In this document: piece after piece, positions 15,906-16,219 of the stretch | How positions within the stretch are numbered: position 1 is the stretch's first letter | Layout: each line of letters begins with the position of its first letter | Assembly (NCBI RefSeq): GCF_054482595.1 | Contig: NZ_CM137008.1 | Strand: one strand, 5' to 3' | DNA: 64,000 bases | The notes under the pieces: generated by a model | What the model was told of the DNA's origin: nothing | Database searches by the model: none | What the model saw: the letters and a program-made list of their open reading frames with translations, nothing else | Position numbers and translations under genes: made by a program

Positions 15906-16219
15906 TTGGGGCCATTTTGACTCATAGAGGAAAGCATCGCGCACAAACTTTTTCAGTTTATTTGTTGGCTTAATATTCTATTGTTATCTTTATTTATAGA
16001 TTTTTATATTGCATGAGGTGGTTTTTGGAGAGAAGAATGAGGACGATGCGTCGAGTCACAGAAACGTTAGCTTTACATATAGTGGAGGTGATGTGAAATT
16101 AATTTACAAGAGAAATAATTTACATATCAAACAGTTAGGTGCTTTTTGTCGTTTTTTAATATTTTTATGCTTGAGAAAAAATACGTAACTTATTTATGAT
16201 ATGGACAGTTTGGCCCCAA
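15906..16219. promoter_or_regulatory. fimS: fimS invertible phase-variation switch (314 bp) flanked by 9-bp inverted repeats
   Basis: ttggggcca at 15906-15914 and its reverse complement tggccccaa at 16211-16219 give exactly 314 bp inclusive, lying between fimA and fimE; this is the known architecture of the type 1 fimbrial switch. Confidence 0.85.
16171..16201 (+). promoter_or_regulatory. Sigma70-type promoter inside fimS (TTGAGA -35, TATGATA -10), reading rightward
   Basis: ttgaga at 16171-16176 and tatgata at 16195-16201 with 18-bp spacing on the + strand, just inside the fimE-proximal inverted repeat; there is no equivalent motif on the strand facing fimA. Confidence 0.5.

Follow-up and report, generated by a model that had tools for sequence, protein, structure and literature searches.

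The window analysed here, a single stretch of DNA of 64,000 nucleotides (64 kb), contains a fim locus read on the minus strand. The gene for the major type 1 fimbrial subunit, fimA (15238-15786, minus strand), was identified as an open reading frame and from how RefSeq annotates the same DNA in other genomes, and the remaining fim operon extends over 9191-15305 on the same strand as a series of open reading frames. In order from the fimA side these are fimI (14634-15173), fimC (13872-14597), fimD (11169-13805), fimF (10629-11162), fimG (10113-10622) and fimH (9191-10102). Positions 11200-15914 are 100% identical to a stretch of the genome of E. coli DETEC-C31 (NZ_CP116197.1) that is annotated as fimD, fimC, fimI and fimA, from which fimI, fimC and fimD take their names (identity within fimD starting at 11200), and fimF, fimG and fimH are named by gene order in the UTI89 annotation. 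Every fim reading frame in the window is open. On the other side of fimA lie two minus-strand genes for tyrosine recombinases, fimE (16267-16863), which acts in the ON-to-OFF direction, and fimB (17341-17943), which acts in both directions. Beyond fimB is its divergent neighbour nanC (20735-21451, plus strand), recognised as an open reading frame and from the annotation of identical DETEC-C31 DNA.

A cluster of defence genes (23776-34781) adjoins the nan genes. It includes an HNH endonuclease on the plus strand (23776-24705), which the annotation of relatives calls a phosphorothioated-DNA-binding restriction enzyme, and a minus-strand trio consisting of a 1126-aa Type III-like restriction/DEAD helicase protein, a 1044-aa Type III-like methyltransferase and a 963-aa SNF2 protein whose best PADLOC match is DrmD. 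It is followed at about 35600-43700 by a remnant of a CP4-like island, so named from the DETEC-C31 annotation, containing a CbtA/YeeU toxin-antitoxin pair, an antirestriction protein, a DUF932 protein, a JAB-domain protein and a YfjP-type GTPase. The 64-kb window has no tRNA gene anywhere.

The fimS element and its predicted promoter

The 480 bp of non-coding DNA that separate fimE from fimA hold the invertible element fimS (15906-16219), and its placement between these two genes, upstream of fimAICDFGH, follows from the reading frames and from the annotation of identical DNA. The E. coli fimS element and its switching by the tyrosine recombinases FimB and FimE reportedly go back to Abraham et al. 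in 1985. In the window the element is bounded by two 9-bp inverted repeats: IRR on the fimA side (15906-15914, plus strand), reading TTGGGGCCA, and IRL on the fimE side (16211-16219, minus strand), which reads TGGCCCCAA on the plus strand. The two are perfect reverse complements and the span that they bound is exactly 314 bp. The 9-mer TTGGGGCCA has just two copies in the 64-kb window, both of them bounding fimS. A lone inverted repeat of 9 bp is nevertheless unremarkable, since at least two copies of the 9-mer were present in 8 of 100 shuffles of the window and two further perfect 9-nt inverted pairs occur within the same 700 bp around fimS.

The element is judged to be real because of its homology to the K-12 locus and because a natural inverted allele exists with its breakpoints inside the repeats. 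Compared with K-12 MG1655, the fimE-fimA region is about 98.5% identical end to end over 722 alignment columns, and the two differ by allelic substitutions only, eight of them inside fimS. The inverted allele is found in DETEC-C31, the closest complete genome, which is 100% identical to the window over 11200-21500 apart from two differences. The first of these is an exact inversion spanning 15906-16219, which places fimS in the ON orientation; the identity of the left flank stops at 15914 and that of the right flank resumes at 16211, the inner edges of the two repeats. Inversion of the segment with crossover inside the repeats thus has comparative evidence, in the exact inversion of DETEC-C31 and in the presence of both orientations across 4706 complete genomes. 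The second difference is the absence from DETEC-C31 of an insertion sequence that lies upstream of fimB in the window.

A promoter scan of 15780-16300 returned four promoter-like matches, of which the strongest agrees with the sigma-70 consensus at 10 of 12 positions and the other three at 9 of 12. The best match is the predicted fimA promoter (16171-16200, plus strand), with a -35 hexamer TTGAGA at 16171-16176, an 18-nt spacer and a -10 hexamer TATGAT at 16195-16200. It reads rightward, with fimA behind it and the 3' end of fimE ahead, and stops 10 bp short of the fimE-proximal repeat. Matches of this kind are not enriched in the AT-rich fimS region (4 against 1.9 +/- 1.6 in shuffles), and since a promoter match is a poor guide in sequence so rich in A and T, independent anchors for the orientation were sought. 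The location and direction of PfimA in published drawings of the OFF state agree with 16171-16200 (PMC9993118). The element would thus carry the predicted fimA promoter beside one of its repeats, in DNA homologous to fimS of K-12. An earlier note, written from the sequence alone, had described an intact 314-bp element with perfect 9-bp repeats, a sigma-70 promoter on the plus strand firing toward fimE, and intact fimB and fimE. The first description holds by sequence and by length and the second by the scan, and the third is confirmed by the predicted proteins, FimE (198/198 aa) and FimB (200/200 aa) both being 100% identical to their K-12 counterparts.

A lesion locking the switch OFF, such as a 16-bp deletion in fimS of the O157:H7 type or a broken recombinase gene, was considered as a candidate and ruled out, the element being full length and FimB and FimE intact.

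Orientation of the switch

Two published orientation assays were run in silico on the window. In the first, primers CAGTAATGCTGCTCGTTTTGCCG and CAGAGCCGACAGAACAACG (PMC11724981) give a product of 601 bp (15745-16345) that contains a SnaBI site, TACGTA, at 16182-16187. Cutting there yields 440+161 bp, which is the published OFF pattern, the sizes being stated as 440+161 for OFF and 403+198 for ON (PMC11724981). In the second, primers OL4/OL20 (PMC9993118) give a product of 727 bp (15752-16478) with a BstUI site, CGCG, at 15938-15941, and the resulting fragments of 539+188 bp match the published OFF sizes of 539+187 rather than the ON sizes of 433+293 (PMC9993118). When 15906-16219 was flipped in silico, both assays turned to ON patterns, with 405+196 bp for SnaBI and 434+293 bp for BstUI. 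Direct alignment further showed the window to run collinear, across the switch, with the reference genome of UTI89, which is stated to carry fimS in the OFF orientation (PMC6458436). MG1655 is likewise collinear with the window at the switch and gives OFF fragment sizes in the same digests, whereas DETEC-C31 gives ON sizes and is in effect the natural ON counterpart of the OFF sequence in the window.

The OFF call rests on the digest assays, on the comparison with reference genomes and on the direction of the predicted promoter, and nothing was found that contradicts it. The locus is almost certainly the canonical E. coli fimS phase-variation switch, caught in the OFF orientation. This was the central claim of the earlier note, and it is upheld by promoter direction, by both digests, by collinearity with UTI89 and MG1655 and by the ON counterpart in DETEC-C31. 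The alignment to a reference of documented orientation that the note had proposed as a check likewise came out in its favour, through UTI89. The digests proposed there fared differently from one another, as SnaBI returned OFF sizes but HinfI could not serve. The fimS element of the window has two HinfI sites, at 15919 and 16053, and the second would make the HinfI assay mislead on this allele, in that the published sizes would not fit.

The second HinfI site (GAGTC, 16053-16057) owes its existence to a G-to-A change not shared by K-12 or UTI89, one of the eight fimS substitutions that separate the window from MG1655. No functional difference between the two elements is evident.

FimB can turn fimS either way and FimE turns it mainly from ON to OFF; in the ON state the promoter within fimS reads past the fimA-proximal repeat into fimAICDFGH, and in the OFF state the fim operon is left without a promoter (PMC9993118, PMC11316696, PMC6458436). 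Inversion also joins fimE to its terminator or parts it from it (PMC9993118, PMC11316696, PMC6458436). Applied to the window, this mechanism would have the 314-bp segment, with its predicted fimA promoter, inverted by FimB and FimE through recombination between the 9-bp repeats. With the promoter positioned beside the fimE-proximal repeat and facing fimE, fimA appears disconnected from its promoter and fimAICDFGH would be promoterless, and the sequenced molecule would represent a non-fimbriate cell state.

IS2 upstream of fimB

Alignment with MG1655 is interrupted 594 bp ahead of the fimB start codon, where an IS2 of 1331 bp lies in the nanC-fimB spacer (18543-19873, plus strand). Its ends read TAGACTGGCCCC and GGGGCAAATCCA, InsC- and InsD-like reading frames lie on the plus strand, and a 5-bp target duplication, CTACG, flanks it at 18538-18542 and 19874-19878. 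The same element is annotated in other genomes as "IS3-like element IS2 family transposase". On the fimB side of the insertion, an exact match to the SlyA operator O_SA1, TTAGCATGATAA, is present on the minus strand at 18382-18393. As O_SA1 is placed at -179 to -168 of fimB (PMC3173223), transcription of fimB should start at about 18214, which puts the IS2 junction at about -328 and gives a computed fimB leader of 271 nt. On the far side of IS2, at 20295-20309 on the plus strand, is a repeat of the NanR-operator type, GGTATAACAGGTATA, a single match in the window where 0.02 would be expected by chance. Its GGTATA repeats are what we take to be the NanR motif. Discounting IS2, the repeat would be situated at -745 to -759, which fits the range of about -760 to -470 given for the operators from which NanR and NagC activate fimB, some 470-760 bp upstream (PMC3173223). 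IS2 adds 1336 bp between the fimB promoter with its SlyA/H-NS region and these distal activator sites.

None of the 5426 complete E. coli genomes searched has the exact IS2 junction of the window. At a coverage of at least 80%, the junction search retrieved 12 genomes, mostly as two-piece matches with IS2 some 550-600 bp further from fimB, and including two one-piece matches at 89.6% identity. IS2 is found elsewhere in the nanC-fimB spacer in some genomes (a few dozen), for example Eco_23-2667 and K_EC180. This suggests that the AT-rich spacer is a recurrent target of IS2, hinting that insertion there may tune fimbriation. In Eco_23-2667 and K_EC180 the element is oriented as in the window but lies at other positions, some 1.2-1.3 kb before the fimB ATG.

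IS2 pushes the NanR and NagC operators about 1.3 kb further away, and the strain could on this account be biased to OFF, or blind to the signals, through lowered or uncoupled fimB expression and hence reduced OFF-to-ON switching. Where IS2 sits, and the duplication of its target, can be seen in the sequence itself; the fimB start is fixed by O_SA1, and IS2 stands between it and the NanR-type repeat. Activation of fimB by NanR and NagC from about 470-760 bp upstream is documented, as is the limiting effect of low fimB expression on OFF-to-ON switching (PMC3173223), and DETEC-C31, otherwise identical but free of IS2, was assembled in the ON orientation. Against this, the promoter and the promoter-proximal SlyA/H-NS region (to about -200) are untouched, and it is the effect of SlyA that is the larger one (PMC3173223). 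Moreover, IS2 could instead raise expression, and one OFF assembly carries no statistical weight against a base rate of 95% OFF. A bias of this kind is a tentative possibility, on balance somewhat less probable than not. By displacing the operators IS2 may lower fimB expression or abolish its response to sialic acid and GlcNAc; that the strain is a natural variant whose OFF-to-ON switching is weakened, or unresponsive to host-derived amino sugars, is rather unlikely.

Comparing switch orientation among IS2-bearing genomes was considered as a test of an IS2 effect and dropped, the 95% OFF base rate leaving it without power.

Orientation among genomes and comparison with known systems

A census of orientation was taken among complete E. 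coli genomes with a 721-bp query covering the switch and both flanks, counting matches to at least 80% of the query length. The orientation of the window was found in 4458 genomes and the flipped one in 248 (about 95% OFF), with a match of any kind in 4721 genomes. The ratio agrees with a report that aerated cultures were detectably OFF only (PMC2978726). The identical fimS allele was assembled OFF in XH990, SM107 and others and ON in DETEC-C31; as judged from these assemblies, the allele of the window demonstrably exists in both orientations. Several laboratory derivatives of K-12 have been deposited with fimS ON (DH1 engineered strains, ER1821R and two "K-12 MG1655" assemblies), unlike the MG1655 reference, so that assembled orientation varies within one lineage.

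Because one allele has been assembled both ways, what an assembly shows is one sampled orientation rather than a property of the strain. The assembled OFF orientation might even say little about the culture, if the population was mixed and the assembler, the clone or the read path fixed one orientation. Mixtures of fimS orientations are known in cultures (PMC2978726, PMC6458436), and the assembly of the identical allele in both orientations, noted above, fits such a picture. Consensus assemblies, however, normally track the majority of reads, the aerated cultures of PMC2978726 were detectably OFF only, and 95% of complete genomes being OFF is what would be expected if the majority state is the one assembled. 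That the assembly is so uninformative is improbable, and the argument in any case qualifies the suggestion of the earlier note that the population was predominantly non-piliated, not the orientation call itself. The OFF consensus suggests only that OFF molecules were in the majority or that the assembly path taken was the OFF one, and the source culture was probably mostly OFF, a reading that follows from the assembly consensus and not from a measured ON:OFF ratio. Least tenable is the reading that the true orientation is ON, its polarity having been read backwards both in the earlier note and in the follow-up, for which no supporting point was found: with two published assays of stated ON and OFF sizes both yielding OFF, collinearity with UTI89, stated to be OFF, and the strongest promoter match facing away from fimA, it is vanishingly improbable and effectively refuted already.

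The OFF orientation stands. The expectation of the earlier note that switching should still be possible is a fair one, given that DETEC-C31 carries this very allele in inverted form; switching presumably still works in the source strain. Free switching is not guaranteed, as the IS2 at about -328 of fimB, which the earlier note overlooked, may reduce or deregulate fimB expression.

An OFF fimS in the window is already known biology, a textbook invertible promoter in its commonest configuration. Its value is practical: positions 15906-16219 should be annotated as fimS (OFF), without the strain being called fim-negative, since every fim reading frame there is open and both recombinases agree with those of K-12. 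The one strain-specific feature that might alter fimbriation is the IS2 in the regulatory spacer of fimB, which is worth noting for users of the isolate; it is the only thread here that is, mildly, novel.

With the fimS of K-12 and uropathogenic E. coli (UPEC), the element shares its locus, its length of 314 bp, the 9-bp repeats, the flanking genes, the promoter hexamers and the OFF digest patterns. Lesions that fix or bias fim in the OFF state are known from O157:H7, which has a 16-bp deletion in fimS, and from ST131, in which an insertion sequence disrupts fimB (PMC5401889, PMC6458436). The window differs from the former in that its fimS is full length, and from the latter in that fimB is intact and IS2 lies in the upstream regulatory spacer, not in the coding sequence or the switch. 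With this class of lesions it shares the combination of an OFF switch and an insertion sequence in the regulatory DNA of fim.
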